Shown here: in pieces, positions 1,501 through 16,338 of the stretch
Position numbering within the stretch: position 1 is the stretch's first letter
Layout: every line of letters starts with the position of its first letter
DNA from: a virus
Virus record (IMG/VR): IMGVR_UViG_3300045988_141072
Coordinates: 1-64,000 of that record
DNA: 64,000 nt
Reading direction: 5' to 3' (one strand)
Translations under genes and position numbers: made by a program
The notes under the pieces: model-generated
Database searches by the model: none
What the model was told of the DNA's origin: nothing
What the model saw: only the letters and a program-made list of their open reading frames with translations

Positions 1501-2130
1501 ATGGGGAATATTCAGATAAATGATAAAGTGATAATAAAAAGTTCCTGTAATAGTAGGGGACAAACTGGATTTGTTATAGACACATATAATGTAGGTACAC
1601 AGAAATATGTTATGGTTCAATTAAAGGATAGAAAACAAGGATATAACGTTTTGTCAGTAGAAAAAGTTGAAAGTGAGGATAATAAAATGACAGGATTTAG
1701 TAAAGTGGCGATTGTAAATTTGGTAGATGATTACAATAAAAAGGATTATGGATTTGCTTTATACGATGAAGATATCAATGAAATTGTTAAGTATGATACC
1801 AATCATCCATTATATCTGATTGTAAATGCAAGAGGAAAAGATAATAGAGTTCTTGGAATTTTAAAAGAAATTAAGACAGTCGAAGAATATGGTAAAGGTG
1901 TGACAGCTCAGGTTGTTGGTGTCGTTAATATGAACGCATATAATGCAAGAATTGATGAGGAAAATCATCAGAAAGAAATTGCAAAGCAGAAAGCTTCTAT
2001 TGAGAAGGAATTAAAGTCTGAGATTGAAAAGATGAATAATATTGCTTTATATGAAAAGATGGCAAAGGAGCATCCTGAGAATCCAAGACTCGCTGAACTT
2101 GTTAATGCACTGAAAGAGTTAGGAGAATAA
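1501..2130 (+). CDS. hypothetical protein
   Basis: ORF track 1492-2130. ATG 1501 lies 8 nt after GGAGG. Ends GGAGAATAA, which serves as the SD for the next gene. Confidence 0.7.
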   Translation: MGNIQINDKVIIKSSCNSRGQTGFVIDTYNVGTQKYVMVQLKDRKQGYNVLSVEKVESEDNKMTGFSKVAIVNLVDDYNKKDYGFALYDEDINEIVKYDTNHPLYLIVNARGKDNRVLGILKEIKTVEEYGKGVTAQVVGVVNMNAYNARIDEENHQKEIAKQKASIEKELKSEIEKMNNIALYEKMAKEHPENPRLAELVNALKELGE

Positions 2131-2131
2131 T

Positions 2132-2392
2132 ATGGCAGGATTTGTATCAAAACAACCAAACGGATTATATTGTAGATTTTCGAGTGTCACGGATTGTCCT
2201 ACGGCATGGAACATGACACGAGAAGATTATATCAATATGAAAATGCAGGAAGCAAAAGAAGACGCTGAAGATGTGTTGGATAATTATTTAAAGCCGTTTG
2301 ATATGGTGATGGATATGTATTATCCAAACAATATGACAAAAGAGGAATTTGATAAATTCCTTGAAGAGACTGGATATAGCAAAGGAGAATAA
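2132..2392 (+). CDS. hypothetical protein
   Basis: ORF track. The ATG is 1 nt after the upstream stop; the SD is embedded in the upstream GGAGAATAA. Confidence 0.7.
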   Translation: MAGFVSKQPNGLYCRFSSVTDCPTAWNMTREDYINMKMQEAKEDAEDVLDNYLKPFDMVMDMYYPNNMTKEEFDKFLEETGYSKGE

Positions 2393-2397
2393 GCCAT

Positions 2398-2547
2398 ATG
2401 AAGAACTGTGTAATTTTAGAAATGGAAAATTGCAATGATTTTGAAAATGCAATGAATGATTATTTAGATGATGGATACAAAGTAGAATCCAGTTCATGCA
2501 ATAGTAGATACTATAAAGCAATTCTTGTGTTGAAGGAGGAGGAATAA
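2398..2547 (+). CDS. small hypothetical protein (49 aa)
   Basis: Hand-translated MKNCVILEMENCNDFENAMNDYLDDGYKVESSSCNSRYYKAILVLKEEE*. The ATG is 5 nt after GGAGAATAA; the ORF fills an otherwise empty gap and ends in GGAGGAGGAATAA just before the next ATG. Confidence 0.45.
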   Translation: MKNCVILEMENCNDFENAMNDYLDDGYKVESSSCNSRYYKAILVLKEEE

Positions 2548-2552
2548 ACCAT

Positions 2553-2825
2553 ATGAAGAAGAAATTTTTAGCAGTTGTTTTAGGATTGACATTATGTTTT
2601 GGAATGACCGGATGTACAAAAGGTGATATTGAGCCTGAAAGCAGCATTCTTGGAAATAAATATATAGACTTAGTAACAATTTATAAAGACGATGGACAGA
2701 GCACTGAAGTTCTCTATGATAAAAATACAAAAGTAATGTATTTTTTAAAACGAAATGATCATCAATTTGGAATCACACCTATCTATAATTCAGATGGAAC
2801 AGTTAAATTATATGACGGAGAATAA
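2553..2825 (+). CDS. putative lipoprotein
   Basis: N-terminus MKKKFLAVVLGLTLCFGMTGC has a basic n-region, a hydrophobic core and a lipobox-like GMTG-C. Confidence 0.7.
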   Translation: MKKKFLAVVLGLTLCFGMTGCTKGDIEPESSILGNKYIDLVTIYKDDGQSTEVLYDKNTKVMYFLKRNDHQFGITPIYNSDGTVKLYDGE

Positions 2826-2826
2826 T

Positions 2827-3471
2827 ATGATAGATGATAAATTACGTCAGCAATATAGACAAGCTGTTGATGATTTGAAAATAGCGTTTAAGAAGACTTA
2901 TTTGTACAGATTTTGCGAAGAAGTTGTGAAGAGATTAAGTGAGATCTTGGATAATAAAGGAGGAAATAAATTGGATAAAGAATTAAAATATTATTCGTTT
3001 CAAGATATATTAAAATTTTTGAGTTTTGATCATGAATTTAAAAGAAAAGATAATTATCCGTTCAATAAAGGTCGAGATAAGGTTGAATTTTCGTGGGGAC
3101 AAGTAATTATTCCTAAAAATGGTATTAGAGAAATGGTTCAGAATAAAATTTCAGACATAAAAGAACAACCTTTATCTGAAATTAAGATGATTTATTCTAT
3201 TCCGTTTAGAGTTGATGATGGAGCTTTTGGTTCTGTTTATAAAAACATAAGTCTCACATTCAGATATGATAAACAATTTAAATATGGGGATATTACAAAA
3301 TCAATTTATGAAGTATGTTTTTGGATTTTAGACAAAGCGATAGAGACGAATGATTTTTATATTATTACCAATGATATGGTACAAGAATTTATGAGTTATT
3401 GTGTATGTTGTAATCAATGGGGATTAGGATCGTTAGTAATTGGTTCGTCTCCAACAGAATACTTAAGATAA
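2827..3471 (+). CDS. hypothetical protein
   Basis: ORF track 2755-3471. The in-frame ATG at 2827 follows GGAGAATAA. Confidence 0.7.
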   Translation: MIDDKLRQQYRQAVDDLKIAFKKTYLYRFCEEVVKRLSEILDNKGGNKLDKELKYYSFQDILKFLSFDHEFKRKDNYPFNKGRDKVEFSWGQVIIPKNGIREMVQNKISDIKEQPLSEIKMIYSIPFRVDDGAFGSVYKNISLTFRYDKQFKYGDITKSIYEVCFWILDKAIETNDFYIITNDMVQEFMSYCVCCNQWGLGSLVIGSSPTEYLR

Positions 3472-3527
3472 TCATAAACAAAAGTAAACCGAAGTTTCCT
3501 TCGGACGATAAGAAAGAGAGGTAAAAT

Positions 3528-3935
3528 ATGGATATTTGTTTAACAGTATTAATTGGATTAATGGGAATTTGTATAGGAGCACTTATTGGGCTTGGGATTT
3601 CTTTTAAGATCAATCATAATTACATACTTGGAATGAACGATATTACTAAAGAATATTTAGGAAAAGTAATTGATTTAGAAAAAGGATATTTCAATACAAT
3701 TGCGACAGATTTAGCAAAAGCAGTAGATGACATTAACAAAGTATATGAAAAGCCAATTTGGAGAAAGACAGAAGAAGAATTGCCACCATGTTCAGGATTA
3801 TATTATGGCAAAATTAAAGGTAATCCACATGGAGAAAATGCTATGTGGAAAGTGATATATAACGACAATGAATGGAGTTTATCTGGTTATCATGATAATA
3901 AAGTAGAAATTAGTGAATGGACAGAGATCTATTAA
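3528..3935 (+). CDS. membrane-anchored hypothetical protein, C-terminal DUF551-like region
   Basis: N-terminal hydrophobic helix (LTVLIGLMGICIGALIGLGI). The C-terminal W..ELPP..W..W..W pattern resembles small phage DUF551 proteins. Confidence 0.6.
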   Translation: MDICLTVLIGLMGICIGALIGLGISFKINHNYILGMNDITKEYLGKVIDLEKGYFNTIATDLAKAVDDINKVYEKPIWRKTEEELPPCSGLYYGKIKGNPHGENAMWKVIYNDNEWSLSGYHDNKVEISEWTEIY

Positions 3936-3978
3936 GACAATAATACATTGAAAGAAATCTTTCGTTCGGAGGTAATAC

Positions 3979-4197
3979 ATGAATAAGAAATGGATTTTAT
4001 GTAATGACAATATTCCTGATGATATGAAAATCGTCCTTGTCACTTATAAAAAGTATATTAATTATGAGAAGACAATGAATAAAATAACATTAGCATATCA
4101 TTATCAAAATAATTGGTATAACGAAAATCACGAATTTCTTAATGTGATTGCATGGATGTATGTGCCAAAACCATTTGGAATAACAGAGAATAATTAA
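3979..4197 (+). CDS. DUF551-like small phage protein
   Basis: MNKKWILCNDNIPDD..VLVTY...W..V.AWMYVPKPF pattern. SD is GGAGGT, 7 nt upstream. Confidence 0.55.
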   Translation: MNKKWILCNDNIPDDMKIVLVTYKKYINYEKTMNKITLAYHYQNNWYNENHEFLNVIAWMYVPKPFGITENN

Positions 4198-4213
4198 CTG
4201 TGAGGTGAACGCC

Positions 4214-4435
4214 ATGTTTGGTTATGTTAAAAAGAAAGAATATGATGAACTATACAGCTATTATCAAGCCACATTGAAAAACATAAAGGGATATCAGAGG
4301 TTTCTTGAAGAACAAGAAAAGCGTACAGAATTAGAATATAAACGAGCCGAGTATTGGAAGGCTAAAGTATTATACCCTAATTCAGAGCCTTATGTTGAAG
4401 GCGATATGAAGACAGTTAAATATATCAAAAGTTGA
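4214..4435 (+). CDS. hypothetical protein
   Basis: ORF track 4205-4435. ATG 4214 lies 6 nt after GAGGTG. Confidence 0.6.
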   Translation: MFGYVKKKEYDELYSYYQATLKNIKGYQRFLEEQEKRTELEYKRAEYWKAKVLYPNSEPYVEGDMKTVKYIKS

Positions 4436-4492
4436 GAACCAATTAAAGCGATATTTCTTCAGATTGTAATAAGTGAACAGGAGGATAATTTA

Positions 4493-4921
4493 ATGAGAAT
4501 AGTAGATAGAAAAACATTGGCTACAATGCCAAATGGAACAGTATTTTGTGGATATACACCAGATTCATTGGATGGTGATTTTGAGATTATTACAGGACAC
4601 AATGAAAAATATGATGGAGTTAAGAACAAAGTGGGTTTTTATAGCACGTTGTCATTGTCGCCATTTATTGACCATGAAAACAAATGTGTTATAGGAACAG
4701 AGAGAATTACTAATTGGGCAACCGTTGATACTTGTGATTACGATTTTGATGAAAACCAGTTGTTTGCAGTATTTAGCAAAACAGAAGTTAGAGCTATGAT
4801 TACAGTTCTTCAGTATGCGTTATCTGATTGCGGATTTTCAATAAGTAAGTTTATGGACACATATTTTTATAAAGATGAAGAAATTGATGAGAAAGATTTA
4901 GAAGATTGGATTGATGATTAA
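4493..4921 (+). CDS. hypothetical protein
   Basis: ORF track; SD is CAGGAGGA. Confidence 0.7.
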   Translation: MRIVDRKTLATMPNGTVFCGYTPDSLDGDFEIITGHNEKYDGVKNKVGFYSTLSLSPFIDHENKCVIGTERITNWATVDTCDYDFDENQLFAVFSKTEVRAMITVLQYALSDCGFSISKFMDTYFYKDEEIDEKDLEDWIDD

Positions 4922-4990
4922 GACCAATGAAATTTTGGTTTCTTGGCTTGTTACGAAACTAAGTAACAATGTAGACACAATAAAGAGCAT

Positions 4991-5107
4991 ATGGATTCTG
5001 TAGTAAAGGGTAGTCCATTTGCAACAGTATATTTCTGTAGAGATTTATTACCAAAGGATCTAATTGTTGAAAAATTGGTTACATATGAAAGACTATTAGG
5101 AGAATAA
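4991..5107 (+). CDS. small hypothetical protein (38 aa)
   Basis: Hand-translated MDSVVKGSPFATVYFCRDLLPKDLIVEKLVTYERLLGE*. Ends in GGAGAATAA 4 nt before the next ATG, like many neighbours. Confidence 0.4.
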   Translation: MDSVVKGSPFATVYFCRDLLPKDLIVEKLVTYERLLGE

Positions 5108-5111
5108 TTAT

Positions 5112-5564
5112 ATGAGCAAGAAAGAAGAATGGATGGTTCATATTTGGGGTGGTGCATGGAATCACGATGCCAATCCATCCATCGAGAAAGATTTAGGTAT
5201 AAAAGAGGGTTATTACTATTTTAATACTGAAGAAGAAAAGAATAAGTTTATTCAGTTAATCAGGCAGGATAAATATGAGAAACAAGGACTGGCAACTGAT
5301 TGTAAACATGGAATTATAACTCATAAGAGGACAATTTTTGTTGCTACTCTCAAATATAAGGATAAAACATTTGTCATTCATTACGACTTAGGATATGAAT
5401 ATCCAGAAGATAGTGCAATTTTCTATTTCACAGAAGGTAATTTTGGTTGTGATTGCAATAGAAGTCTTGCTATTAGATGGGAATATGGAGAAGATGCAAT
5501 TCCTGAATTACCTTGTGGAGATGAAATTGAAATGGCAGATTATCATGTCGAGTATCAAGATTAG
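5112..5564 (+). CDS. hypothetical protein
   Basis: ORF track; coupled to the upstream GGAGAATAA. Confidence 0.7.
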   Translation: MSKKEEWMVHIWGGAWNHDANPSIEKDLGIKEGYYYFNTEEEKNKFIQLIRQDKYEKQGLATDCKHGIITHKRTIFVATLKYKDKTFVIHYDLGYEYPEDSAIFYFTEGNFGCDCNRSLAIRWEYGEDAIPELPCGDEIEMADYHVEYQD

Positions 5565-5655
5565 TAGAGAATAATAAAAAGTAATCTCTGAAATACCTTA
5601 AAATCAAGGCTTTCAGAGGTTGAAAAAGCCAAGGAAAACCACGTTTCTTTCGAGG
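5565..5655 (+). repeat. Conserved intergenic element, copy A (TAGAGAATAA + hairpin + AAAAAGCC + dyad)
   Basis: TAGAGAATAA at 5565-5574. Hairpin CTCTGAAATACCTT/AAGGCTTTCAGAG at 5586-5618. The block TTTCAGAGGTTGAAAAAGCCAAGGAAAACCACGTTTCTT is about 80 percent identical by eye to 37931-37970. Confidence 0.6.
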
Positions 5656-5665
5656 AGGTGATTGA

Positions 5666-5827
5666 TTGGATACATCATGTGAAACTTGTAAATGTAATAC
5701 CTGTAAGATGAATGAAAATGGTGGCATTTATGGTGGATGTTTTGATTGTGAAGATTGCAAAGAACAAAATCTTTATTGTGAAGATTGTTCAATGTATGAA
5801 TATGACAAATACAGATTGAGTAATTAG
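5666..5827 (+). CDS. small Cys-rich protein (53 aa, TTG start)
   Basis: Hand-translated (M)DTSCETCKCNTCKMNENGGIYGGCFDCEDCKEQNLYCEDCSMYEYDKYRLSN*. The TTG lies about 8 nt after GAGGAGGTGAT. Confidence 0.45.
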   Translation: MDTSCETCKCNTCKMNENGGIYGGCFDCEDCKEQNLYCEDCSMYEYDKYRLSN

Positions 5828-5836
5828 GAGAAATTT

Positions 5837-6340
5837 ATGGGTAAATCATTAGAATTTGTAAAAGAACGAATTGAATCAGGTCAGTGCAATGGTATGGAAA
5901 ATAACAAATATGAATCTATGGTTGAGCAGGACATACGAGAGTTATTCAATGTTGTTAATTACACTAAAGATGGAACAATTTTAGCAGATGTACCTTATCT
6001 TAAAGGTGACAAGCCTTATTTCAATGTAATTATTAAGCGTGATCCAGATGCAGATTTTGAGTATTTCACAATGCAGCGTTGTAATTGTGATGGAACGTTT
6101 ATATTCTTTCAAAACTTGATGAATGAGTGCATAGATAAAATGATTCATCTCAAGACTTGTAATGTAAATAAGGAGATACCAAAAGACTTAACTGGATATT
6201 CTATCATCTATACTGTCGGAGATTTTGTATTAGCAGAAGAATTTGGTGGTGAATTTGCAACAAAAGAAAAACCTTGGATGCAGAGTAGATTTACAGTTAT
6301 GTTGCCAATTAAATTTGATGTAGTGAAGAATGGAGAATAA
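5837..6340 (+). CDS. hypothetical protein
   Basis: ORF track; SD is TAGGAGA. Confidence 0.7.
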   Translation: MGKSLEFVKERIESGQCNGMENNKYESMVEQDIRELFNVVNYTKDGTILADVPYLKGDKPYFNVIIKRDPDADFEYFTMQRCNCDGTFIFFQNLMNECIDKMIHLKTCNVNKEIPKDLTGYSIIYTVGDFVLAEEFGGEFATKEKPWMQSRFTVMLPIKFDVVKNGE

Positions 6341-6344
6341 CAGT

Positions 6345-6593
6345 ATGGAGTCATCACAAGATGAAAGACAAAAATTTTTAGAATTAATAGATAGAGTAAG
6401 TCCTTGTGCTGCAATTTCTGAAAAAGAAAATCTTGAAAAGTTTAAAGAGTGGCTGGATAGTAATAGATCAAAAAGAGTTACATTTGTTGAAGCTCCAAAA
6501 ACATTTAAATATCAAGTTGGAAATGACAAAGTGCTTCTTATACCAACAAATATACCAGAAAAGATAATAAAAGTTACATTTGAAGGAGAATAA
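6345..6593 (+). CDS. hypothetical protein
   Basis: ORF track 6330-6593. ATG 6345 follows GGAGAATAA. Confidence 0.65.
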   Translation: MESSQDERQKFLELIDRVSPCAAISEKENLEKFKEWLDSNRSKRVTFVEAPKTFKYQVGNDKVLLIPTNIPEKIIKVTFEGE

Positions 6594-6597
6594 CAAT

Positions 6598-6876
6598 ATG
6601 AGAGCATATGAATTGCGACAGCATGACGTAATTTCTTATTATCCTCCACAACCACACAAACAGGAATATAAACTTGGAGAACACATTTCTATTAACGAAT
6701 TAGCTGAAACAATGTTTGGTTCACCTGCTTTAAGGTTAGAAAGAGATAAAAATGAGAACAAGATGCTTCGAGTTATAGAAATAAAATATGTAAAATTCCC
6801 TTGGTGGAAGTTTTGGAAGAGAAGAAAATATGTTGAAGAATATCATTTAGAAGTTATAGGAGGAATAAATAGATGA
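6598..6876 (+). CDS. hypothetical protein
   Basis: ORF track 6580-6876. ATG 6598 follows GGAGAATAA. Confidence 0.65.
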   Translation: MRAYELRQHDVISYYPPQPHKQEYKLGEHISINELAETMFGSPALRLERDKNENKMLRVIEIKYVKFPWWKFWKRRKYVEEYHLEVIGGINR

Positions 6877-7198
6877 ATAAAGAAGGATCAACTTCTAATA
6901 TTACATATTCTGCTGAAGATTTGGTAAAGCATTTAAAATTATTTTAAAAAGATTAAATGAAGCAAAGAATGAAAAAACAGAAATTATACACATATGTAGT
7001 ACATGTAAACATAGATGCACAGAAACATATTTGACGCAGGATTGGATGGTTGAAAAAGTTTGGCACAATTGGTGTGCCCTTGATAAAAAATATATGGAAA
7101 CAGAATATGGTCATGGTAATGGCGAACATTTTTCAGAGCCATGTAATCATTGGGAAATGTCGGATTATTATGAAGACAAGGAAGATAAGTATGAATAA
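6873..7198 (+). CDS. Cys-rich hypothetical protein that needs a -1 frameshift (or is split or a pseudogene)
   Basis: ATG 6873 (SD AGGAGGA, ATGA overlap with the upstream stop) opens only 24 codons, to TAA 6945-6947. The -1 frame is open 6917-7198 with no SD-linked start (..IILKRLNEAKNEKTEIIHICSTCKHRC..). The heptamer T_TTA_AAA at 6932-6938 is in the correct phase. Confidence 0.35.
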
Positions 7199-7472
7199 GA
7201 GACAGAAAAAGAAATTATTTAAGCAGACACTTATTAAGGTTAGAAAATTGCATCCACAGAAGGGTGATGTGATTTGTTTTCAGCCTAATCTTGATTATGT
7301 TGACTTGGGAACTATGTGTGATTTTTTAAGGGTATATGAGGATAATAAGATTTTTGGAGAAGCTATACTCGCTATTATTCCGTCAGACATTAAACATATA
7401 TATGGTGGTAAAGAATTAGCACAAGTCTTTGTAGACAAGTTACAGAGTATTGTAGATCAGATGGGAGAATAA
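7191..7472 (+). CDS. hypothetical protein
   Basis: ORF track 7050-7472. ATG 7191 follows AAGGAAG; the upstream part of that track ORF overlaps the other-frame ORF ending at 7198. Confidence 0.65.
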   Translation: MNKRQKKKLFKQTLIKVRKLHPQKGDVICFQPNLDYVDLGTMCDFLRVYEDNKIFGEAILAIIPSDIKHIYGGKELAQVFVDKLQSIVDQMGE

Positions 7473-7476
7473 TAGT

Positions 7477-7575
7477 ATGAGTAAATATAAGGTAAGTAAT
7501 TATATTGCGAAAAAGTGGGAAGATATTTCAAAAGAGACACCAATGTATAAAGCTTATAACTTAGGTATAGCATAG
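7477..7575 (+). CDS. small hypothetical protein (32 aa)
   Basis: Hand-translated MSKYKVSNYIAKKWEDISKETPMYKAYNLGIA*. The ATG is 5 nt after GGAGAATAA. Confidence 0.35.
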   Translation: MSKYKVSNYIAKKWEDISKETPMYKAYNLGIA

Positions 7576-7578
7576 GGA

Positions 7579-7857
7579 ATGGCTTGGAGTTATGAAAATT
7601 TAAAATCTGCAACAGATAAGGAAACAGCCGATAAAATATGGCGCAATTATTTAGATGGAACAGATGAATTATGCACCATTTTTAGAACAATTGTTAGTTT
7701 ATCAAATGATGATACCAATTCAAAAATTGAAAAATTAATGGAAAGGCTATCTGAGACTAAGAAACCAGAAAAAGTTATGTCTGATGATGATAGAGATATG
7801 ATTGAGGAGTTCCTTGAATATCTACAACATAAAAATGAAAATAAAGATTCTGAGTAA
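7579..7857 (+). CDS. hypothetical protein
   Basis: ORF track. Confidence 0.6.
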   Translation: MAWSYENLKSATDKETADKIWRNYLDGTDELCTIFRTIVSLSNDDTNSKIEKLMERLSETKKPEKVMSDDDRDMIEEFLEYLQHKNENKDSE

Positions 7858-7931
7858 AGAAGCATTTCCTTGGAGTTTTGAACGATAAAAAGAGAATAAA
7901 TACATAGAAAATAGAAAGAGAGGTACTGAAA

Positions 7932-9251
7932 ATGTATTGTGCTTATATCACAACATTAAAAGGATTAAGAAAACATAGCAACGCTGATAGATTACAGTGT
8001 GTAGAAGTATTTGGACAGAATGTAATTGTAGATTTGAGTTATCAGGAAGGACAGAAAGTAATTTTCTTCCCATCTGACGGTCAGTTATCACTTGAATATG
8101 CGACAGATAATAACCTTGTCAGAAAGAAAGACGAGAATGGAAACAACATTGGTGGTTATATGGATGCTGAGAAGAGAAATGTGACTGCTATTAGACTTAG
8201 AGGTGAAAAGTCAGAAGGTCTTGTATTACCAATTGAGACACTTGCTAAGTATACAGATATTTCAAAATTAAAAGATGGCGATCAGATTACAGTTCTTGGT
8301 GGTCATGAGATTTGTCAGAAATATATCCCAAGAGGAAAAAATCGTTCAAGAAGTAATGGGAATGGTGCAAATAAAAAGAATAAGTTTCAGAAAGAAACTG
8401 TATCATATCCATTTTTCGAGGAGCATAAAGATACTGCACAGCTTGCGTATAATATGTCAGCATTTAAGCCAGGAGATACGATTTATATTACTCGTAAGCT
8501 TCACGGAACATCTGCTCGTACCATGAAAACAGTTAAGATTACAAAGAAGAATAGTAAGCTGAGAAAGTTTTTACATATGCAGCAAAAGGTTACAAGAGAA
8601 GTTTCTGTTGTATCTGGTAGCAGAAGAGTCGTATTAAAGGATATGACAAAGAACGATGGATATTATTCTGATAATGGATTCAGAAAAAAATATCATGATT
8701 TATTAAAAGACAAGCTTCCTGAAGGTGCTGAGATTTTCTATGAAATTGTTGGCTATGTAAATGAAACAACACCAATTATGGGTTCAGTATCTAATAAGGG
8801 AGTTAAGGAAAAAGAATTTACAAAGAAATTTGGCGACACCACAACATTCTCATATGATTGTGAGCCAGGTGAAAATGAGATGTATGTATATCGAATGACA
8901 ATGACAACAGCAGATGGAACAGTTGTTGAAGTACCTTGGGAGACTGTAGAAGTATGGTGTGACAAGTTAGGTGTTAAACATGTACCTGATTTAGAGAAGT
9001 TTATTTTTACTACACCAGAAGATTTGAAAGAAAGAGTAAATAAATATCTTGATGGTATGCCAGCAGATGAAATCGGCAAGACACATGTTGCCGAAGGTGT
9101 AGTTGTTCGTATTGATAACAGAGCAACATTCACGGCTTATAAGGATAAGGTGTTTGAATTTAAGGTAATTGAGGGAATCGCCAAAGATACATCTGATGTA
9201 CCTGATATGGAAGAAGCTGAAGAGTTGTTTGAGGAGACTTTAAATGAGTAA
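7932..9251 (+). CDS. ATP-dependent RNA ligase, DraRnl/Rnl5-like (N-terminal OB-type module plus nucleotidyltransferase domain)
   Basis: Motif I lysine in ITRKLHGTS (compare the KxHGT of Rnl2-type ligases); EIFYEIVGY (motif III-like); HVAEGVVVR (motif IV); AYKDKVFEFK (motif V). The N-terminus (..LRKHSNADRLQCVEVFGQNVIV..) resembles a tRNA-binding OB module. Confidence 0.8.
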   Translation: MYCAYITTLKGLRKHSNADRLQCVEVFGQNVIVDLSYQEGQKVIFFPSDGQLSLEYATDNNLVRKKDENGNNIGGYMDAEKRNVTAIRLRGEKSEGLVLPIETLAKYTDISKLKDGDQITVLGGHEICQKYIPRGKNRSRSNGNGANKKNKFQKETVSYPFFEEHKDTAQLAYNMSAFKPGDTIYITRKLHGTSARTMKTVKITKKNSKLRKFLHMQQKVTREVSVVSGSRRVVLKDMTKNDGYYSDNGFRKKYHDLLKDKLPEGAEIFYEIVGYVNETTPIMGSVSNKGVKEKEFTKKFGDTTTFSYDCEPGENEMYVYRMTMTTADGTVVEVPWETVEVWCDKLGVKHVPDLEKFIFTTPEDLKERVNKYLDGMPADEIGKTHVAEGVVVRIDNRATFTAYKDKVFEFKVIEGIAKDTSDVPDMEEAEELFEETLNE

Positions 9252-10134
9252 ACCTACATTGTATATCATGTGTGGTCTGTCTGGCAGTGGTAAATCAACC
9301 ATTGCCACTCAGATTGCCAATGAAAATCCAAATACAGTAATTGTATCATCGGATGCGATTCGTGAAGAATTGACAGGTAATTACGAAGACCAACAACATA
9401 ATGAAGAAGTGTTTAAGATTTTTCATGATAGAATCCGTAAGAATTTAGAGAATAAAAAGAATGTAATTGCAGATGCAACTAATCTGACTATGAAATCTCG
9501 CAGAGCAATTATGATGAAAGTAAATGGTTTAAATGTCAGGAAAGTATGTGTAATTATTCCAAAGCCATTTGAACAGTGCAAAAAAGATAATTTACATAGA
9601 GAACATCCTGTATCTGACTTTGTGTTGGATAAGCAGATTAGAAAATTCCAGATTCCGTTCTATGAGGAAAATTTCGATGCCATTAAAATTTATGATCTAC
9701 ATAAAAAACATAAATTATCTGTGCCAGAAATGATACAACAGATGGATAATTTTGATCAACAAAATCCTCATCATACAATGACGCTGGATAAACATTGTAG
9801 AAATACATATGAGTTATTTTGTAAGAAGAATTATCCATTAGAATTTAACATAGCTGCAATATTGCATGATTATGGGAAACTGTTTTGTAAAACAACGGAT
9901 GAAAATTGCATAGCACATTTTTACGATCATAATTCAATTGGTTCATATTTGGTATTGGAAAACTTAGTTGGCGAATATAAGTATGGTCTTTTAGATATTT
10001 GTTTCCTTATTAATTACCATATGATGCCTTTTAGTTGGGATACTGATAAAGCAAAACAGCGTTGGAAAGAAAGATTCGGAGAATATAAATATAAGATGCT
10101 TTTAGATTTTAACGAATGTGATAGAGCGAGGTAA
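9244..10134 (+). CDS. bifunctional end-healing enzyme: N-terminal P-loop polynucleotide kinase plus C-terminal HD phosphohydrolase
   Basis: Walker A is CGLSGSGKST. HD-domain signatures are AAILHDYGK and FYDHNSIG. Overlaps the ligase gene by 8 nt. Confidence 0.8.
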   Translation: MSKPTLYIMCGLSGSGKSTIATQIANENPNTVIVSSDAIREELTGNYEDQQHNEEVFKIFHDRIRKNLENKKNVIADATNLTMKSRRAIMMKVNGLNVRKVCVIIPKPFEQCKKDNLHREHPVSDFVLDKQIRKFQIPFYEENFDAIKIYDLHKKHKLSVPEMIQQMDNFDQQNPHHTMTLDKHCRNTYELFCKKNYPLEFNIAAILHDYGKLFCKTTDENCIAHFYDHNSIGSYLVLENLVGEYKYGLLDICFLINYHMMPFSWDTDKAKQRWKERFGEYKYKMLLDFNECDRAR

Positions 10135-10138
10135 GTGT

Positions 10139-10315
10139 ATGTGCAATCGTTGTGATTATGACTCACCAGACAATCGAATATATGTAGATCCATTAACTAA
10201 TGAATATTATTTGGATATAGAAACATTTGAATGGGATGAGTATGATGATGGATTTGTTCATCAAAAAGAATATATTACGTATTGTCCTTATTGTGGCAGG
10301 AAGTTAAGAGAATAA
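10139..10315 (+). CDS. small zinc-ribbon protein (58 aa)
   Basis: MCNRCDY...YCPYCGRKL contains CxxC...CxxC. ATG 10139 follows GAGGTAAG. Confidence 0.55.
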   Translation: MCNRCDYDSPDNRIYVDPLTNEYYLDIETFEWDEYDDGFVHQKEYITYCPYCGRKLRE

Positions 10316-10401
10316 ATTTAAAAGTAAATTCAGGTTTCATTGGCTTTGAGTAACTTCACAAGAAGTAACATATCCTTGAATTATTGAAAAGAGGTGATTA
10401 A

Positions 10402-10878
10402 GTGTTAGTACCGGCAATTTTATATAAAGAACAGATTACAAAGGAATTTCAGAAATATTATTATACAACAGATATGTTATATGAAACAGGTTGTATGTGT
10501 AATTGGAGTCCTGAAATTGCAGAATGTCCAAATGAGAGTCAATTCCAATATGCAATAGTTGATAAAAGTGGAAAGTTAGTTGGCTACTTAGGATATTCCG
10601 TTGATTGGTATGCATCTAAAGCATATAACTTTGGATTGTTCTCATTTGACAGAGGAAATATCTTGGTTGGTAGGGACGTATTCGATAAATTAGAAGAACT
10701 GATTAAAACATTACATAGAGTTGAATGGCGAGCTGTTGGTGGTAATCCAGCTTGCAGAGGTTACGATAGCTTTATTAAAAGACATAATGGAATGAAACAT
10801 GTTCTGAAAGATTCAATTAAAGATAAGAATGGTGAGTATCACGATGATTTTATTTATGAGATTGTGAATGAAGGATAA
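10402..10878 (+). CDS. GNAT-like acetyltransferase (tentative)
   Basis: Size and pattern (..IVDKSGKLVGYLGY...HRVEWRAVGGNPACRGYDSFIKRHNG..) resemble the GNAT fold. GTG start lies after AAGAGGTGAT. Confidence 0.45.
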   Translation: MLVPAILYKEQITKEFQKYYYTTDMLYETGCMCNWSPEIAECPNESQFQYAIVDKSGKLVGYLGYSVDWYASKAYNFGLFSFDRGNILVGRDVFDKLEELIKTLHRVEWRAVGGNPACRGYDSFIKRHNGMKHVLKDSIKDKNGEYHDDFIYEIVNEG

Positions 10879-10896
10879 TGCATTGGAGGTGAAAAT

Positions 10897-11325
10897 ATGT
10901 ATCAGAATTGTTGTAAGAAATGTGGAAGCATTTCACTACATACAGAAGTAAAAGGTAATAACATAGGACTTTATTGTGATGATTGCGGTGCATGGGTCAA
11001 ATGGCTTGGAAAAGATGAGTTGAGAGCTTTTGAGTATTCTATGAGAGAAGCAACAAAAGAAGAAAACGAAGCTATTGATAAGTATTTAGAAAGCATATCA
11101 AAATCAACAGGCTACAATATATATGAAGATTCAACAATTATTAAAAAACTTAACCGGTTTATAGATGGTATTGATGAAGCTATTGATAGTATATACGTTA
11201 ATCCAACGGCAGAACACGACAAACTTATCTATAATAATGCATATGCTTTTGTTTTAGAACTATGTAAAGTATGTGTCCAGAATATCATTGAAGGTAGAGA
11301 ATTTAATGATTCAGGAGAGGAGTAA
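10897..11325 (+). CDS. hypothetical protein with N-terminal zinc ribbon
   Basis: CCKKCGS...YCDDCG motif; SD is GGAGGTG. Confidence 0.65.
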   Translation: MYQNCCKKCGSISLHTEVKGNNIGLYCDDCGAWVKWLGKDELRAFEYSMREATKEENEAIDKYLESISKSTGYNIYEDSTIIKKLNRFIDGIDEAIDSIYVNPTAEHDKLIYNNAYAFVLELCKVCVQNIIEGREFNDSGEE

Positions 11326-11327
11326 TT

Positions 11328-11612
11328 ATGAAGCCAGTAGTATATTTTGATTTTAAGGAATGTGAAAACGATAATAATAGTGTCGTGATTACGAAAGATA
11401 GGTTAAAAGAGATTTTAGATGAAGTGTATCAAGCAGGATATTCAGATGGAAATTTAAATAAAACTACCATTACAACAACTCCTTGGAATTGGAGAGACAA
11501 TGTTGTGTATTGTGGTGGCAATAATGACCAAATGATTCCTAGAGAAATAACGACAGGAACACCATTAAAAACTAATGGGACAGTTATTACATGTGAAAAT
11601 AAAAAGTCGTAG
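11328..11612 (+). CDS. hypothetical protein
   Basis: ORF track; the ATG is 2 nt after the upstream stop. Confidence 0.6.
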   Translation: MKPVVYFDFKECENDNNSVVITKDRLKEILDEVYQAGYSDGNLNKTTITTTPWNWRDNVVYCGGNNDQMIPREITTGTPLKTNGTVITCENKKS

Positions 11613-11717
11613 GAATCCAATCTTTCATTGGAAAATTTTTAATCATATCTAAGCCATTCGGCTATGGGAATCCCAGTAACAAGAAGAAATAGTATTGTTT
11701 GATAGTTAGGAGAAAAT

Positions 11718-12080
11718 ATGGATTGGAGAGGTAGAAAATATTATATTGTTACATTTTGTTTTGACTCATATGATATGAGGATGAGTTTTCTAAAACTTAT
11801 TCCAAATATTAAATTCACATATTATAAAAATATTCCAAAACAAAGAGATGAAACAGAGGAACGTGGAAATTATCAATTTATGATTGGTGTTCCTAATGGT
11901 TCTTCTGAAGCTGTTGAATATGAATTAAGAAAAGCAGAAAGAAATGATTTTTATTGTAAATGGAAAGAAATTAAACAAGACTTGTCAAAAAAATATCTTG
12001 ATGTATTTGGTAATCCAATGCCTTATAGAAGATGTGATATAAATCCAAATAAAAGATGTAATCATTGTATGAATTGTTAA
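11718..12080 (+). CDS. hypothetical protein
   Basis: ORF track; SD is TAGGAGAA. Confidence 0.65.
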   Translation: MDWRGRKYYIVTFCFDSYDMRMSFLKLIPNIKFTYYKNIPKQRDETEERGNYQFMIGVPNGSSEAVEYELRKAERNDFYCKWKEIKQDLSKKYLDVFGNPMPYRRCDINPNKRCNHCMNC

Positions 12081-12220
12081 TTGATAATTTTACAGTAAAT
12101 ACTATTTTCTTATAGTGGTTGCAAACACTAGGAAAATCAACGATTTTATAATACAGAAAGGTAAAAATAGTAAGCCTATAGGTAATTTAGATTGCGCAAT
12201 CTCTATGGAAATAAGAGATT

Positions 12221-13234
12221 ATGAACAATGAAAATAAGAATACTAATTCATTACGAAAAGCAAAAACACTTGATGAATTATTAAATACGTGTCCACGTAA
12301 TCAAATTATTGGTGATAATTTGGTTAGAGCATGGTCAAAAATTAATAGTGTAAAGTACAAGAAAATAGTTTGCTCGATTTCAGGTGGATCAGATAGTGAC
12401 GTGATGCTTGATATTGTATGGCGATGCGATAAAGATAATAAAGTTGATTATGTTTGGTTTGATACAGGTCTTGAATATCAAGCGACCAAGGATCATCTAA
12501 AATATTTGGAAAACAAATATAATATAAAGATAAAACCATATAAGGCAATTAAGCCTATTCCGTTATCATGTAAACAATATAGTCAACCGTTTATAAACAA
12601 ACAAGCTGCTGAATACATAGATAGACTTCAAAGACATGGTTTTAAATGGGAAGATAAATCGTTTGATGAATTATATAAGGAATATCCTAAGTGTAAAGCT
12701 GCTTTGCTATGGTGGTGTAATTTAAAGAAATCGAATGCTTTTAATATTGCAAATAATAAATGGCTCAAAGAGTTTATTATTGAAAATCCACCAACATTTA
12801 AAATCTCATCAAAATGTTGTCAATATGCAAAAAAGGATGTTTCTCATAAATTGATAAAAGAAAATACATATGAATTAAATATAGTTGGTGTGCGAAGAGC
12901 AGAAGGTGGTGTTAGAGCCACATCCTATAAGTCTTGTTTTAGCGAAGGCGATGATGGATGCGATAATTATAGACCTCTATTTTGGTATAAAGATTCTGAC
13001 AAAATTGATTATGAAAACGTTTATAATGTTGAACATTCAGATTGCTATGTTGTTTATGCCTTGCCAAGAACAGGTTGCGCAGGTTGTCCATTTGGAAGAG
13101 ATTTTGAGAATGAACTTGAAGTTATTCAAAAATATGAACCAAAACTATATAAGGCTGTAAATAATATTTTTGGAGATTCTTACGAATATACAAGGAAGTA
13201 TCGTGAATTTGTAAAGAAAATGAATAAAAAGTAG
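12221..13234 (+). CDS. PP-loop ATP pyrophosphatase, PAPS-reductase-like (phage DndC/IbrA-type family)
   Basis: PP-loop is SISGGSDSDVM. The C-terminal LPRTGCAGCPFG is typical of phage PAPS-reductase-like proteins. Confidence 0.7.
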   Translation: MNNENKNTNSLRKAKTLDELLNTCPRNQIIGDNLVRAWSKINSVKYKKIVCSISGGSDSDVMLDIVWRCDKDNKVDYVWFDTGLEYQATKDHLKYLENKYNIKIKPYKAIKPIPLSCKQYSQPFINKQAAEYIDRLQRHGFKWEDKSFDELYKEYPKCKAALLWWCNLKKSNAFNIANNKWLKEFIIENPPTFKISSKCCQYAKKDVSHKLIKENTYELNIVGVRRAEGGVRATSYKSCFSEGDDGCDNYRPLFWYKDSDKIDYENVYNVEHSDCYVVYALPRTGCAGCPFGRDFENELEVIQKYEPKLYKAVNNIFGDSYEYTRKYREFVKKMNKK

Positions 13235-13292
13235 AGAATAACAAATTGAGAGGTTACGAAAGCCTTGAAAAATAAGGCTTTTAGAATCTCAA
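13232..13292 (+). repeat. Conserved intergenic element, copy B
   Basis: TAGAGAATAA at 13232-13241 (its TAG is the stop codon of the upstream gene). Nested hairpin: TTGAGA..AAAGCCTT / AAGGCTTT..TCTCAA at 13246-13292. Confidence 0.55.
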
Positions 13293-13326
13293 AATATAAA
13301 AATATTACATATAAAGGAGATTTTAA

Positions 13327-13878
13327 ATGAAGAACACGAATTGGAAAGTGCCAGTAATTATTGGCGTAGGAGTATTAGCAGTTATTTTGATGATTGTATT
13401 TGGTGTACAGAGTTCACAGAATAAGGCTATTGCACTTGAGGAGCAGGTAAATACAGCGTCATCAGATATTGAGGTACAGGAAAAGCGAAGAGTTGACCTT
13501 GTATATAACCTTGCTGATTGCGTAAAACAGTATGACAAACATGAAGCTGATACATTGACAGCAGTTGCAGATGGTCGTGGATCAACAGGAGATATTGAGA
13601 ATGTAACAACAGCTATTACAGCAGTTGCAGAAGCATATCCTGAGTTGAAGTCCAATGAGAACTATAAGACTCTTATGAATGAGTTATCCATGACAGAGAA
13701 TATGATTGCAGAATATCGCAGCAATTACAATAAGCAGATTAAGGAATATAAGAGATATGTGAGAAAGTTCCCTACAAGACAGTTCCTTGGATTGCTTGGA
13801 TATGAAGTACAGAAATATGAGTATCTGGATTACAACGCACCAGTTGATGCTCCACAGGATTTGTTTAAAGAGGATTAG
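13327..13878 (+). CDS. lemA: LemA family protein
   Basis: N-terminal TM helix followed by the characteristic LemA sequence (..ALEEQVNTASSDIEVQEKRRVDLVYNL..AEAYPELKSNENYKTLMNELSMTENMIAEYRSNYN..). Confidence 0.85.
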   Translation: MKNTNWKVPVIIGVGVLAVILMIVFGVQSSQNKAIALEEQVNTASSDIEVQEKRRVDLVYNLADCVKQYDKHEADTLTAVADGRGSTGDIENVTTAITAVAEAYPELKSNENYKTLMNELSMTENMIAEYRSNYNKQIKEYKRYVRKFPTRQFLGLLGYEVQKYEYLDYNAPVDAPQDLFKED

Positions 13879-13881
13879 TCT

Positions 13882-14634
13882 ATGAGATATGGTTTTGATT
13901 TTGGCGATTTTGAAATAACAAAACGTGAAATCTTGGCTAGTATTTCTATCATTGCAATTATGATTCTGTTTGGTATTCTGATTTCTTCAAAGATTTCAGA
14001 ACACCAAATGGATAAAAATGAAATTTATAACAAGGCTGTTAAGATAGAAAGTCAAGAAATGTTCCAATACGGAATGGACACAAATGTTGGTAATGCGTTT
14101 GTATATGGTGATTTAAAAGCGGTAGATACAGTTACTTATCCTGAAATTAGTGGAGAATATATGTATGTAGAAAAAGTCAAAGAGAGATATACAATGCATA
14201 CAAGACAAGTAGCTCATACAAGAACTGTTAATGGCAAATCACAAACTTATTATACAACAGAAACATATTGGACTTGGGATAAAGTTGGAAGTGAAGATAT
14301 TAAGTGTAAAGAAATATCGTTTTGTGGAGTAAATTTCACAAGTAATAAAATTGATTTGCCTGGTACTGATTATATTGACACAATTAAAGAGTCAAGTCAT
14401 GTGAGATATAAGTATTATGGTGTTGGCACTGAATATAAAGGAACAATTTTTGCAGATTTGAAAGATAAAACCATTTCTGATAACACATCATTTTATAATA
14501 ATTTGACTATTGACGAGACGATAGAAAGGCTAGAATCTGATTTTCCAATTATTATTTTCTGGATCTTTTGGGTTATTTTAATCGGTGGAATGGTATTTGG
14601 GTTCTATTATTTGGATAATAGATGGTTAGATTAG
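13882..14634 (+). CDS. two-TM membrane protein with large intervening domain
   Basis: Hydrophobic helices near the N-terminus (ILASISIIAIMILFGILISS) and the C-terminus (IIIFWIFWVILIGGMVFGFYYL). Starts 3 nt after lemA. Confidence 0.7.
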   Translation: MRYGFDFGDFEITKREILASISIIAIMILFGILISSKISEHQMDKNEIYNKAVKIESQEMFQYGMDTNVGNAFVYGDLKAVDTVTYPEISGEYMYVEKVKERYTMHTRQVAHTRTVNGKSQTYYTTETYWTWDKVGSEDIKCKEISFCGVNFTSNKIDLPGTDYIDTIKESSHVRYKYYGVGTEYKGTIFADLKDKTISDNTSFYNNLTIDETIERLESDFPIIIFWIFWVILIGGMVFGFYYLDNRWLD

Positions 14635-14675
14635 CAAGAAATTTTTCTTTCTTTTGGATAGGTTGGAGGTGTGAT

Positions 14676-14999
14676 ATGAGAACAGAGAATATAAAAGTAA
14701 CATTTAAAATTCCAATTCCAGTTGATAAGCCTGATTTGAACGGTGTGATATATTCCAAAGAAGCAATTAGAAATGCTTATAAAAATGTAAAGAATATTCC
14801 GATTGAGATACCATGTAGCGATGGTAAGTTTCTTCCTATTGGAGTAGCACAAGAAGTTGAATTGATTGAAGACGAAGATGGTATGTATGTCACAGGCGTT
14901 GGTCTTATTTGGCATGGTGGCACAGAAGAAAGCGTTGAAATTAAGGATGGTAAGGTAACTAGCTTTAAAGTGAATGGCATTGGAATTGCAAAAGAGTAG
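14676..14999 (+). CDS. hypothetical protein
   Basis: ORF track 14622-14999. ATG 14676 lies about 7 nt after GGAGGTG. Confidence 0.6.
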   Translation: MRTENIKVTFKIPIPVDKPDLNGVIYSKEAIRNAYKNVKNIPIEIPCSDGKFLPIGVAQEVELIEDEDGMYVTGVGLIWHGGTEESVEIKDGKVTSFKVNGIGIAKE

Positions 15000-15011
15000 G
15001 AGAATAAGTAT

Positions 15012-15299
15012 ATGGCGATAGGCGATGGAAGAAAAATATATTCAGATAGCACATTAAAATCTATGACAAAAGATAAACTGATTGATATTATTCGCTGCTT
15101 AGAAAGTAATCTTAGAAATGCTCATGAGACAAATGATATTCAATATGAGAACTGTAAGAGGTTACTGAGTGAAGAGAAGAATAAAACACTTGATGAAGTT
15201 CTAAAGGCTTGTGATATAGAATGTGGATTTTACAGTGGCGATGTTAAGAATCTTACAAGACACGTTTTGATGAGAGTATTAGATGGATTGAGAGAATAA
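15012..15299 (+). CDS. hypothetical protein
   Basis: ORF track; SD is TAGGAGAATAAG. Confidence 0.6.
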   Translation: MAIGDGRKIYSDSTLKSMTKDKLIDIIRCLESNLRNAHETNDIQYENCKRLLSEEKNKTLDEVLKACDIECGFYSGDVKNLTRHVLMRVLDGLRE

Positions 15300-15318
15300 A
15301 TATCTGTGAGGTGATGAA

Positions 15319-16215
15319 GTGAAATATATAGAACGAAAAGATTATAACAAGGTGATAACAGTTAAACTTGTGATTCCAGGTGGTTGTAATGCGAAATGTC
15401 CGTTTTGTTACAATAAAGACAAAGATATGTCATGTAACAAACAACAGTTTTTAGATAATTTCATTGAATCACTTGATGATATTATAACCAGAATAGGTGA
15501 TAAAAATCCTATATCAGTTGATATAACTGGTGGCGAACCAACTTTAGATCCTGAATATTTATCAAAAGTGTTTATCAAATTGAAAGAGTTCAATATTAAA
15601 TCAAAGGTTCTTAGAGTAACTATGACAACAAATGGTACTCATCTAAAGGAAGTAATACCGTATATGGAAGATGTTGTTGATTATGTAAATATTTCAATTC
15701 ACGATTGGCGACCATTAAGAAGAGAAGAAATACTTGGATTTTGTTTCAACGGAATTGATTATAAGGATATGGTTCAGCAGCTTAACGATATTAGAATTAC
15801 AGTATCCGCTTGTGCAGTCATATTTAAGAAAGTTCCAAACTTTATAAAGTGGAGAGACTTCTTTATTGATTGGGCGAAAGATGTAGGGTTTATTGCAGTA
15901 AGATTTAGATGCGATGTTTTCTGGAATGATTCTGATGTGTTTGATTACTATTTAACAGAGTCTATGAGTGAGACTGATAAATTTGATGTTATAGATTATG
16001 AAAACACAACGGATTCTCATTGGTGTAGACTTCGCAGAAAAGATAAAATGAGAGTATTTTTCCTACATGGTGTTTTAGACACCTCAATTAAGACAAAAGG
16101 TATTGAATATGTAATAGATACTGATGGTCACTGTTATTGTGATTATTACAGAAGGACAAAAGTAGAAGATTATCAATATGAAGTTGGAAAGATTTATGAT
16201 GCAGTGAGTGATTAA
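15319..16215 (+). CDS. radical SAM enzyme of unknown substrate
   Basis: CxxxCxxC in PGGCNAKCPFCYN. GGEP motif in DITGGEPTLDP. Extra C-terminal cysteines (HWCRL.., GHCYCDYY). GTG start lies after GAGGTGAT. Confidence 0.8.
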   Translation: MKYIERKDYNKVITVKLVIPGGCNAKCPFCYNKDKDMSCNKQQFLDNFIESLDDIITRIGDKNPISVDITGGEPTLDPEYLSKVFIKLKEFNIKSKVLRVTMTTNGTHLKEVIPYMEDVVDYVNISIHDWRPLRREEILGFCFNGIDYKDMVQQLNDIRITVSACAVIFKKVPNFIKWRDFFIDWAKDVGFIAVRFRCDVFWNDSDVFDYYLTESMSETDKFDVIDYENTTDSHWCRLRRKDKMRVFFLHGVLDTSIKTKGIEYVIDTDGHCYCDYYRRTKVEDYQYEVGKIYDAVSD

Positions 16216-16338
16216 ATAGAGAATAACTTAACAGGAATGATTCGTTTCTTTTGAAAATTATAACAGATAGGAGTGATATAAACGAGAGTATATAAAGATA
16301 AACAGTATCTTATTTTCGATTATGAAGATGGACGCACT

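Follow-up and report, generated by a model that had tools for sequence, protein, structure and literature searches.

A 64,000-nucleotide (nt) stretch of viral DNA (IMG/VR record IMGVR_UViG_3300045988_141072, positions 1 to 64,000; here termed the window) has ~31% G+C, and its genes all lie on the + strand as far as ~54 kb. The original prediction, made from the sequence alone, placed an overlapping pair of open reading frames (ORFs) at 7932–10134, and both were found at these positions on the + strand (Table 1). The first encodes a predicted RNA ligase, and the second (9244–10134, + strand, 296 amino acids) encodes a predicted polynucleotide kinase fused to a putative HD phosphoesterase, here termed kinase-HD.

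Table 1. Features at and around the ligase/kinase-HD gene pair (positions in the window)
Feature	Position	Strand	Evidence or remarks
Conserved leader 5' of the ligase position, including ribosome-binding site (RBS) AGAGAGGT 8 nt before the ATG	7837..7931	+	Kept in loci L003, L039 and L046
Predicted ATP-dependent RNA ligase, Rnl5-like (type A), 439 amino acids	7932..9251	+	phrog_968, Pfam RNA_ligase, AlphaFold2 (AF2)/Foldseek, motifs
Kinase-HD, N-terminal half: predicted P-loop 5'-OH polynucleotide kinase (residues ~1–159)	9244..9720	+	AAA_33, TIGR04075, PDB profile, Foldseek
Kinase-HD, C-terminal half: predicted HD phosphoesterase domain (residues ~160–296)	9721..10134	+	Invariant His/Asp; Pfam HD in homologues
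Small Zn-ribbon protein, CxxC...CxxC, 58 amino acids	10139..10315	+	phrog_1494 (unknown function) 1.4e-7; DUF6980 weak
Promoter-like conserved element, start of the next unit (gene 10402–10878)	10348..10384	+	TTCACA-N18-AATTAT

The two ORFs share 8 nt (ATGAGTAA), with the ATG of the second lying within the last codons of the first, and the junction reads GAGGAGACTTTAAATGAGTAA. A GAGGAG Shine–Dalgarno sequence is present within the end of the ligase gene, 6 nt 5' of the kinase-HD ATG, and a scan of the window found neither a terminator nor a convincing promoter within the block.

For comparison, we used 80 viral loci with close kinase-HD relatives, mostly on ~150–160 kb contigs, together with 59 more distant viral loci, two Bacillus phages and three bacterial genomes (Eubacterium segne, a Lacrimispora metagenome-assembled genome and Konateibacter massiliensis), which were the only three recovered from a scan of the genome collection. 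A viral scan with one distant homologue as the query gave zero matches. The 8-nt overlap is retained at every junction between a type A ligase and kinase-HD in the first 80 viral loci, with the sole exception of L079, and close homologues of the ligase and of kinase-HD number hundreds to thousands each. The many homologues and the retained overlap show that both ORFs are real genes rather than chance ORFs. Judging from the arrangement of the genes, the ligase and kinase-HD appear to be co-expressed via translational coupling. The ~95-nt leader is 89–91% identical before either of two ligase types, A and B, described below (L003, L039, L046).

Folds and active sites of the ligase and kinase-HD

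In family scans, the type A ligase matched phrog_968 'RNA ligase' over its full length (2e-67) and Pfam RNA_ligase above the cut-off (3.5e-10). The PHA02142 OB annotation matched its N-terminus weakly (6.8e-4), and is also present in many of its homologues. Searches of the PDB with the ligase, both as a single sequence and as a profile, gave nothing meaningful, and the fold was therefore resolved by structure-based search only. The alignment used for modelling included ~50% identical relatives, gathered with the ligase of Bacillus phage PBC2 as the query, and the resulting AF2 model had a predicted local distance difference test score (pLDDT) of 81. It contains an N-terminal OB domain (~1–130), a disordered linker (136–154) and a nucleotidyltransferase domain (~160–415) with a low-confidence segment at 232–247. 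The model closes with an acidic helix after motif V, and lacks a C-terminal OB domain.

PDB matches 1–13 of the ligase model in Foldseek were all Naegleria gruberi RNA ligase (NgrRnl), the exemplar of the Rnl5 family (E 8e-17 to 9e-15, template modelling score 0.66–0.69 on the target, 419–438 columns), with both the OB and adenylyltransferase domains aligned. T4 Rnl2 matched at 2e-7 and DNA ligases at 2e-4 or worse, and capping enzymes were absent from the top 50; the structure search thus did not place the protein among DNA ligases or capping enzymes. The ligase motifs quoted in the original prediction were all found, as KLHGTS (189–194), EIVGY (271–275), EGVVVR (388–393) and KDKVFEFK (404–411), and among 52 homologues T187, K189, H191, G192, E271, E388-G389..R393 and K404/K406 are invariant or nearly so. 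In DraRnl, the Deinococcus member of the family, motif I is TEKLHG, motif IV is EGVVV and motif V is marked by a lysine soon after motif IV (PMC1807946). T187-R-K189-L-H191-G192 (TRKLHG) and EGVVV of the window ligase correspond to the first two.

The type A ligase is therefore Rnl5-like in predicted fold, architecture and active site, in line with the predicted Rnl5-clade ligase with an OB-type N-terminal module. Like DraRnl and NgrRnl, it combines an N-terminal OB domain with a C-terminal adenylyltransferase domain and no further C-terminal domain, and it contains TxKLHG, EGVVV and the motif V lysines. Unlike them, it has the linker at 136–154, the segment at 232–247 and the acidic C-terminal helix. 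Because it is ~100 residues longer, is only 14–16% identical to NgrRnl, and scores below the equivalog cut-off of the DraRnl model (51 versus 151 bits), it is a divergent Rnl5-like branch rather than a DRB0094 orthologue.

The kinase half of kinase-HD matched AAA_33 at 4e-25. Its best NCBIfam match was TIGR04075 (4e-16), the kinase segment of bacterial Pnkp, with a total of 58 bits against a cut-off of 750, the match being limited to the kinase segment. Its best PDB sequence match was the kinase of Clostridium thermocellum Pnkp (CthPnk), at 3e-10 with a single sequence and 1e-25 with a diverse profile. The AF2 model of the whole protein had a pLDDT of 92.8 and a predicted template modelling score of 0.91, and its kinase half had as Foldseek neighbours CthPnk, mammalian PNKP, Pnkp1 and T4 Pnk, and also the tRNA-dependent kinase PSTK. 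After the polynucleotide kinases, the next relatives were PSTK/KTI12, with weak matches to APS kinase, 6PF2K and zeta toxin. The P-loop reads GLSGSGKS. Among 60 homologues with a mean identity of 29%, G11 and R86 are invariant and S15, G16, K17, D37, R40 and R119 nearly invariant; D37 and R40 line up with the SSDxxR segment of CthPnk. The nearest solved structures are thus bona fide 5'-OH polynucleotide kinases, as the claim of a P-loop polynucleotide kinase had anticipated.

In the C-terminal half, the LHDYGK (207–212) and YDHN (227–230) motifs quoted in the original prediction are present. The ligand set H177, H184, H208-D209, H229, H259 and D293 (H..H..HD..H..H..D) is invariant across the same 60 diverse homologues, which upholds the assignment as an HD phosphoesterase-type domain. 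Pfam HD was matched by 28 of 42 close and 40 of 60 distant homologues (best 3.5e-8), and no family-library scan gave a match to a HAD-superfamily (DxDxT) 3'-phosphatase; the C-terminal half is HD. A profile of the HD half alone aligned with chains of the CCA-adding/poly(A)-polymerase type (3wfp/3wfr) through HH..L.EH, HDxGK, YxHxxVG and (H)HxxPF, which are found in both, and the NCBIfam match TIGR02692 also points to a CCA-adding-type HD. By sequence, the HD half has its nearest solved relatives in the CCA-adding/poly(A)-polymerase family. It differs in its setting: kinase-HD has no nucleotidyltransferase domain, and its HD is fused to a kinase. As a tblastn query, the HD half alone gave only 7 weak phage matches, because the domain is too divergent for tblastn. 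According to PMC10673834, which cites Yakunin 2004, the HD domains in CCA-adding enzymes act on tRNA 3' ends both as phosphatases and as 2',3'-cyclic phosphodiesterases.

Domain order and comparison with known repair enzymes

The fusion of a P-loop 5'-OH kinase and an HD phosphoesterase in one chain recalls HD-Pnk from Runella and its Deinococcus counterpart DR_B0098, compared here via their published description. In Runella HD-Pnk, the 5'-kinase and 2',3'-phosphoesterase activities are proven, the HD is N-terminal and the kinase C-terminal, and a ligase ORF lies directly upstream and overlaps, as in the window (PMC6097658). The window protein has the reverse order, with the kinase at 1–159 and the HD at 160–296; the order of the characterised enzyme had been given correctly in the original prediction. 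The partner ligases also differ, being Rnl5-like in the window (Rnl1-like in sister loci), LigB (DR_B0100) in Deinococcus, and a self-adenylylating ligase-like protein in Runella. A pairing of the Deinococcus HD-Pnk with DraRnl was considered and proved wrong, DR_B0098 sharing its operon with LigB (PMC5397189). In the window, the module belongs to a phage, and neither Tpt1 nor methyltransferase-HIT genes were seen beside it.

The reversed order is not rare. An exhaustive search with the HD half as the query returned 1,564 clusters at 50% identity, 419 of them at E of 1e-10 or better. Nearly all of the best 150 matches were proteins of 285–340 amino acids with the HD at the C-terminus, and the N-terminal kinase was present in 59 of 60 sampled homologues. 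A near-full-length match to kinase-HD was found in 37 phage records, which annotate the protein as 'polynucleotide kinase', 'ATPase' or 'hypothetical protein'. Its gene follows one annotated 'RNA ligase' in Bacillus phages PBC2 and vB_BcoS-136. Two BFVD entries matched the structure over its full length, under the names 'Gp264' (Bacillus phage G) and 'AAA domain protein'. The claim of an uncharacterised arrangement thus holds in that a literature search found no biochemistry on it, but any suggestion of rarity does not, since the family is large and includes many sequenced Bacillus phages. Kinase-HD with its ligase rearranges repair enzymes that are already known and does not amount to a novel type of system; the pair is abundant and apparently unstudied.

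Like T4 Pnkp and Rnl1, the module is a phage-encoded combination of an N-terminal P-loop kinase and a C-terminal phosphoesterase with an ATP-dependent RNA ligase. The kinase half has T4 Pnk among its structural neighbours, and an Rnl1-type ligase fills the ligase position in 35 sister loci. In contrast, the phosphoesterase is an HD in the window and a HAD-superfamily phosphatase in T4 (PMC7824862), the window ligase is Rnl5-like rather than Rnl1, and in the window the ligase gene directly adjoins that of kinase-HD, with translational coupling of the two. Campylobacter phage NCTC12673 gp161 ('putative poly A polymerase'; relatives phrog_6931) has an HD at 36–124 and a kinase at 190–328. Its N-terminal HD aligned with the window HD half with an hhalign probability of 98% (E 6.5e-14). 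The HD subfamily and kinase clade are common to both, and this phage also has an Rnl1 gene nearby; however, the order in gp161 is HD then kinase, and its ligase lies 1.3 kb away without overlap. The Clostridium thermocellum Pnkp/Hen1 and Pnkp1/Rnl/Hen1 systems include the closest solved kinase relative and share the heal-and-seal logic, whereas Pnkp has a calcineurin-type metallophosphoesterase and its own ligase domain; no Hen1-like methyltransferase was present among the neighbour genes scanned in the window. In Rhodobacter phage RcXuper (L146, 1227–2998), an Rnl1-type ligase overlaps a stand-alone 165-amino-acid polynucleotide kinase without an HD, beside NAD-salvage genes. This is another variation on the theme of ligase plus kinase.

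Exchange of the ligase and neighbouring genes

The kinase-HD gene was detected at 143 loci, and architectures were counted over these. An RNA ligase gene lay directly upstream of kinase-HD, or was separated from it by a nucleotidyltransferase gene, in 137 of them. Ligase A preceded kinase-HD in 59 loci and ligase B in 41, while an Rnl1-type ligase preceded it in 10 loci and was followed by a nucleotidyltransferase and then kinase-HD in a further 25. Two loci had ligase B, nucleotidyltransferase and kinase-HD in this order, one had kinase-HD followed by a nucleotidyltransferase, and five had kinase-HD alone, three of these on truncated contigs. L029 and L137 lack a ligase despite ample upstream sequence. 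In L029, the kinase-HD ORF (5986–6816) ends before D293, which, as a single case, could reflect decay after loss of the partner.

Ligase B (387 amino acids; L003, 4828–5991) matched PHA02142 OB at 9e-23, RNA_ligase at 5e-19 and TIGR02306 at 6e-30, and is far nearer the canonical Rnl5 family than type A. Ligases A and B showed no BLASTP similarity (E 0.2), yet phrog_968 is common to both. The third ligase is T4 Rnl1-like (L053, 4683–6008; PF09511 9e-24, phrog_562). The three types are mutually exclusive in this position, and A and B each occur with every sequence lineage of kinase-HD. Homology between the window and L007 extends over 6584–7931, ends exactly at 7931 and resumes from 9241 onward; only the ligase ORF therefore differs, and the exchange is exact at the ORF boundaries. 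Since the three types interchange, the constant feature is a healing enzyme plus some RNA ligase. The best reason to think that kinase-HD and the ligase cooperate on RNA is that their pairing has persisted through three ligase types. From these sequence comparisons, the near-obligatory upstream ligase and its three alternating types appear to be new, and we regard the polymorphism of the ligase position as the most interesting aspect of the locus.

The gene between ligase and kinase-HD in 27 loci (e.g. L084, 4205–5008; L101, 3193–3996) matched the phrog_388 'nucleotidyltransferase' family (~267 amino acids, 1e-12). It overlaps the start of kinase-HD, and the ligase upstream of it is of the Rnl1 type or type B. 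It may be related to the RlaP nucleotidyltransferases, which are known from published work to associate with RNA ligases; Pfam and PDB searches with the ~267-amino-acid protein gave no match, and did not confirm it as RlaP.

The two genes of the pair differ in their conservation. Between the window and Bacillus phage PBC2 (L001), the ligase is 52% identical and kinase-HD only 28%, and in the first 80 viral loci the type A ligases are 95–100% identical to that of the window, while kinase-HD ranges from 70% to 99%. By these identities, the two genes evolve at very different rates or differ in history. Homing-endonuclease-like ORFs occur at some loci: one with a GIY-YIG-like N-terminus, recognised by eye, lies upstream of ligase B in L012 (3966–4832), and a 247-amino-acid ORF with weak HNH/AP2 matches is wedged between ligase B and kinase-HD in L024 (5265–6008). 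Such ORFs may help drive cassette exchange. In L084, a NAD-dependent DNA-ligase-like ORF and an HNH-like ORF, both recognised by eye from translations, are located 5' of ligase B. Close relatives of the cassette are present on large contigs of Lachnospiraceae-type genomes (L083, Eubacterium segne BX4, on a 340-kb contig; L084; L085), which points to the host range of these phages or to their existence as prophages or episomes.

Downstream of kinase-HD, the Zn-ribbon gene starts 4 nt past the kinase-HD stop and has its own GAGG. Of the 80 viral loci, 44 have it directly beside kinase-HD and 10 have it displaced further 3'; its proposed membership of the module is thus borne out as far as it is a frequent companion, but an optional one. 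In 11 of the 80 loci (L008, L027, L028, L031, L034, L042, L045, L048, L057, L059 and L079), the Zn-ribbon gene is replaced or preceded by a phosphoesterase gene that overlaps the kinase-HD stop; in L008 (6875–7453), it encodes a 192-amino-acid calcineurin-type metallophosphoesterase (PF00149 1.3e-6, phrog_547 1e-44). This protein is a second candidate 3'-end-healing enzyme in these 11 loci. The 'GNAT-like' gene at 10402–10878, also proposed as a part of the module, was rejected. It had no Pfam, NCBIfam or PDB sequence match, and so no support for GNAT or another family, matching only phrog_30343 (unknown function); it is present in 16 of 82 loci, and it lies behind its own promoter-like element as a separate unit. 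The 34-nt core of this element (10348–10381) recurs with 88–91% identity at varying distances 3' of the module in L003, L007, L039 and L046, and is present in a single copy in the window, where no repeated promoter element was found.

Across ~250–19800 of the window, a GGAGAATAA-type motif, combining an RBS and a stop codon, is found at many junctions (e.g. 2817, 4185, 6586, 7451, 13233, 15291 and 18179), and many small ORFs terminate in '...GE*'; both features indicate that genes throughout the early region are tightly packed and translationally coupled. A few kb downstream of the module are genes for a PAPS-reductase-domain protein (12221–13234; PF01507, phrog_424) and a radical-SAM protein with QueE-like matches (15319–16215), which may function in nucleic-acid modification. 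Gene orientation and GC skew switch from + to - at ~54 kb (~53700–54700).

Proposed function of the module and alternatives

Metal-independent ribonucleases leave a 2',3'-cyclic phosphate and a 5'-OH, which a classic ligase is unable to join. In T4, Rnl1 is the tRNA-repair ligase, and acts with Pnkp against the PrrC anticodon nuclease. We hypothesize that the P-loop domain of kinase-HD transfers a phosphate from a nucleoside triphosphate onto the 5'-OH, and that the HD domain, as a metal-dependent phosphoesterase, opens and removes the 2',3'-cyclic or 3'-phosphate to give a 3'-OH. The Rnl5-like ligase would seal the resulting 3'-OH/5'-PO4 break via lysyl-AMP (K189) and RNA-adenylate intermediates. 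The likeliest use would be to mend, in the infected cell, tRNA or other translation RNAs that the host has cleaved, following the logic of T4 Pnkp and Rnl1. Given the folds, catalytic residues, gene coupling and almost obligatory ligase neighbour observed in silico, we consider it likely that the pair is a phage RNA break-repair cassette for the heal-and-seal repair of 2',3'-cyclic-phosphate/5'-OH breaks, probably directed against host RNA-cleaving defences. The predicted enzyme functions are well supported in silico. That Rnl1-type ligases can take the ligase position, that the HD is of the CCA type and that the kinase resembles PSTK/KTI12 all favour RNA, and probably tRNA, as the putative substrate. 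Counter-defence would be the role, as in T4.

Several points weigh against this assignment. The HD of the window protein itself scored 18.2 bits against Pfam HD, below the 22-bit cut-off, and the match of the ligase to TIGR02306 (the DRB0094/DraRnl model), at 51.2 bits against an equivalog cut-off of 151, covers residues 11–195 only. Characterised Rnl5 enzymes seal duplex nicks, not single-stranded anticodon-loop breaks, and the physiological role of the family has been described as uncharted, the sole known phenotype of DraRnl being sensitivity to radiation (DNA damage) (PMC5397189). The ligase beside Runella HD-Pnk self-adenylylates, but sealed no tested substrate (PMC6097658). A full-text literature search, with Munir & Shuman 2017 and Burroughs & Aravind 2016 outside its coverage, found no paper or biochemistry on the kinase-HD order. 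Since the 143 loci belong to closely related phages, they cannot be counted as independent events. No tRNA genes or Rfam RNAs were found in the window, and no host nuclease target was pinpointed.

Owing to the radiation phenotype of DraRnl and the location of the module in the early/replication region, the main rival is a function in the repair or replication of DNA or RNA–DNA junctions, in which kinase-HD heals 5'-OH/3'-PO4 DNA and the ligase seals nicks with a 3' ribonucleotide, for instance those left by damage or found at primer remnants in the phage genome. In a duplex nick, DraRnl needs RNA on the 3'-OH strand only, and Deinococcus without it is sensitised to ionising radiation and slower to reassemble its genome (PMC5397189), while Runella HD-Pnk is a DNA/RNA end-healing enzyme (PMC6097658). 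The module lies ~18 kb upstream of genes for a DnaB-like helicase (27957), a RecJ-like exonuclease (30558), a DNA polymerase (32344) and an exonuclease V/Dda-like helicase (35615), and in the Bacillus phages an ATP-dependent DNA ligase is encoded ~2 kb downstream. However, such a function sits poorly with the T4 Rnl1-type ligases at 35 loci, 25 of which also contain the phrog_388 nucleotidyltransferase, with an HD nearest to the tRNA-3'-end-repairing HD of CCA-type enzymes, and with a kinase similar to the tRNA-binding PSTK/KTI12; we regard it as unlikely.

It is still less probable that the module serves housekeeping or take-over RNA processing, such as the upkeep of tRNA 3' ends, the maturation or circularisation of phage transcripts, or the clearing of damage-signalling 2',3'-cyclic-phosphate RNA fragments or nucleotides. 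Its constitutive siting among early genes would suit such a role, as would the action of CCA-type HD domains on spontaneously damaged tRNA 3' ends, described in a passage of PMC10673834, and a survey of jumbo phages proposes that removal of 2',3'-cyclic phosphates by phages could blunt damage signals (PMC7824862). Yet a sealing ligase that is nearly obligatory argues for rejoining rather than mere end clean-up, and the window contains no phage tRNAs or introns needing processing. It is very improbable that one domain is dead or acts on a non-nucleic-acid substrate, as a small-molecule kinase or phosphohydrolase, with the ligase an incidental neighbour. Although the P-loop kinase fold is common to many small-molecule kinases, of which APS kinase, 6PF2K and zeta toxin gave weak matches, and the HD score is sub-threshold in the window, polynucleotide kinases are the best matches by a wide margin, the catalytic residues of both domains are invariant in distant homologues, and adjacency to a ligase outlasts replacement by three ligase types.

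Within the preferred reading of an RNA break-repair cassette, we tentatively propose that the module is a plug-and-play counter-defence device. A constant kinase-HD and interchangeable ligases, sometimes with the extra nucleotidyltransferase or second phosphoesterase, would be swapped at ORF boundaries by recombination within one phage population. The ligase carried would set which ribotoxin lesion is reversible, an anticodon-loop break or a nick in structured RNA. The polymorphism would be the footprint of an ongoing arms race with the RNA-cleaving defences of gut Clostridia. This possibility is doubtful at present.

Knowledge of phage RNA repair is almost wholly based on T4. The module points to a different enzyme set that is common in large Firmicutes phages, a kinase with a CCA-enzyme-type HD and an Rnl5-like ligase, and reveals an abundant clade of it on ~150-kb metagenomic viral contigs. 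It gives the Rnl5 family a concrete, testable partner and pathway, and the series of ligase swaps (A, B and Rnl1) between near-identical flanks is a natural experiment on how RNA-sealing enzymes choose their substrates. If counter-defence is indeed the role, RNA-cleaving defences are predicted to be an important barrier in the Lachnospiraceae-type genomes that carry close relatives of the module.

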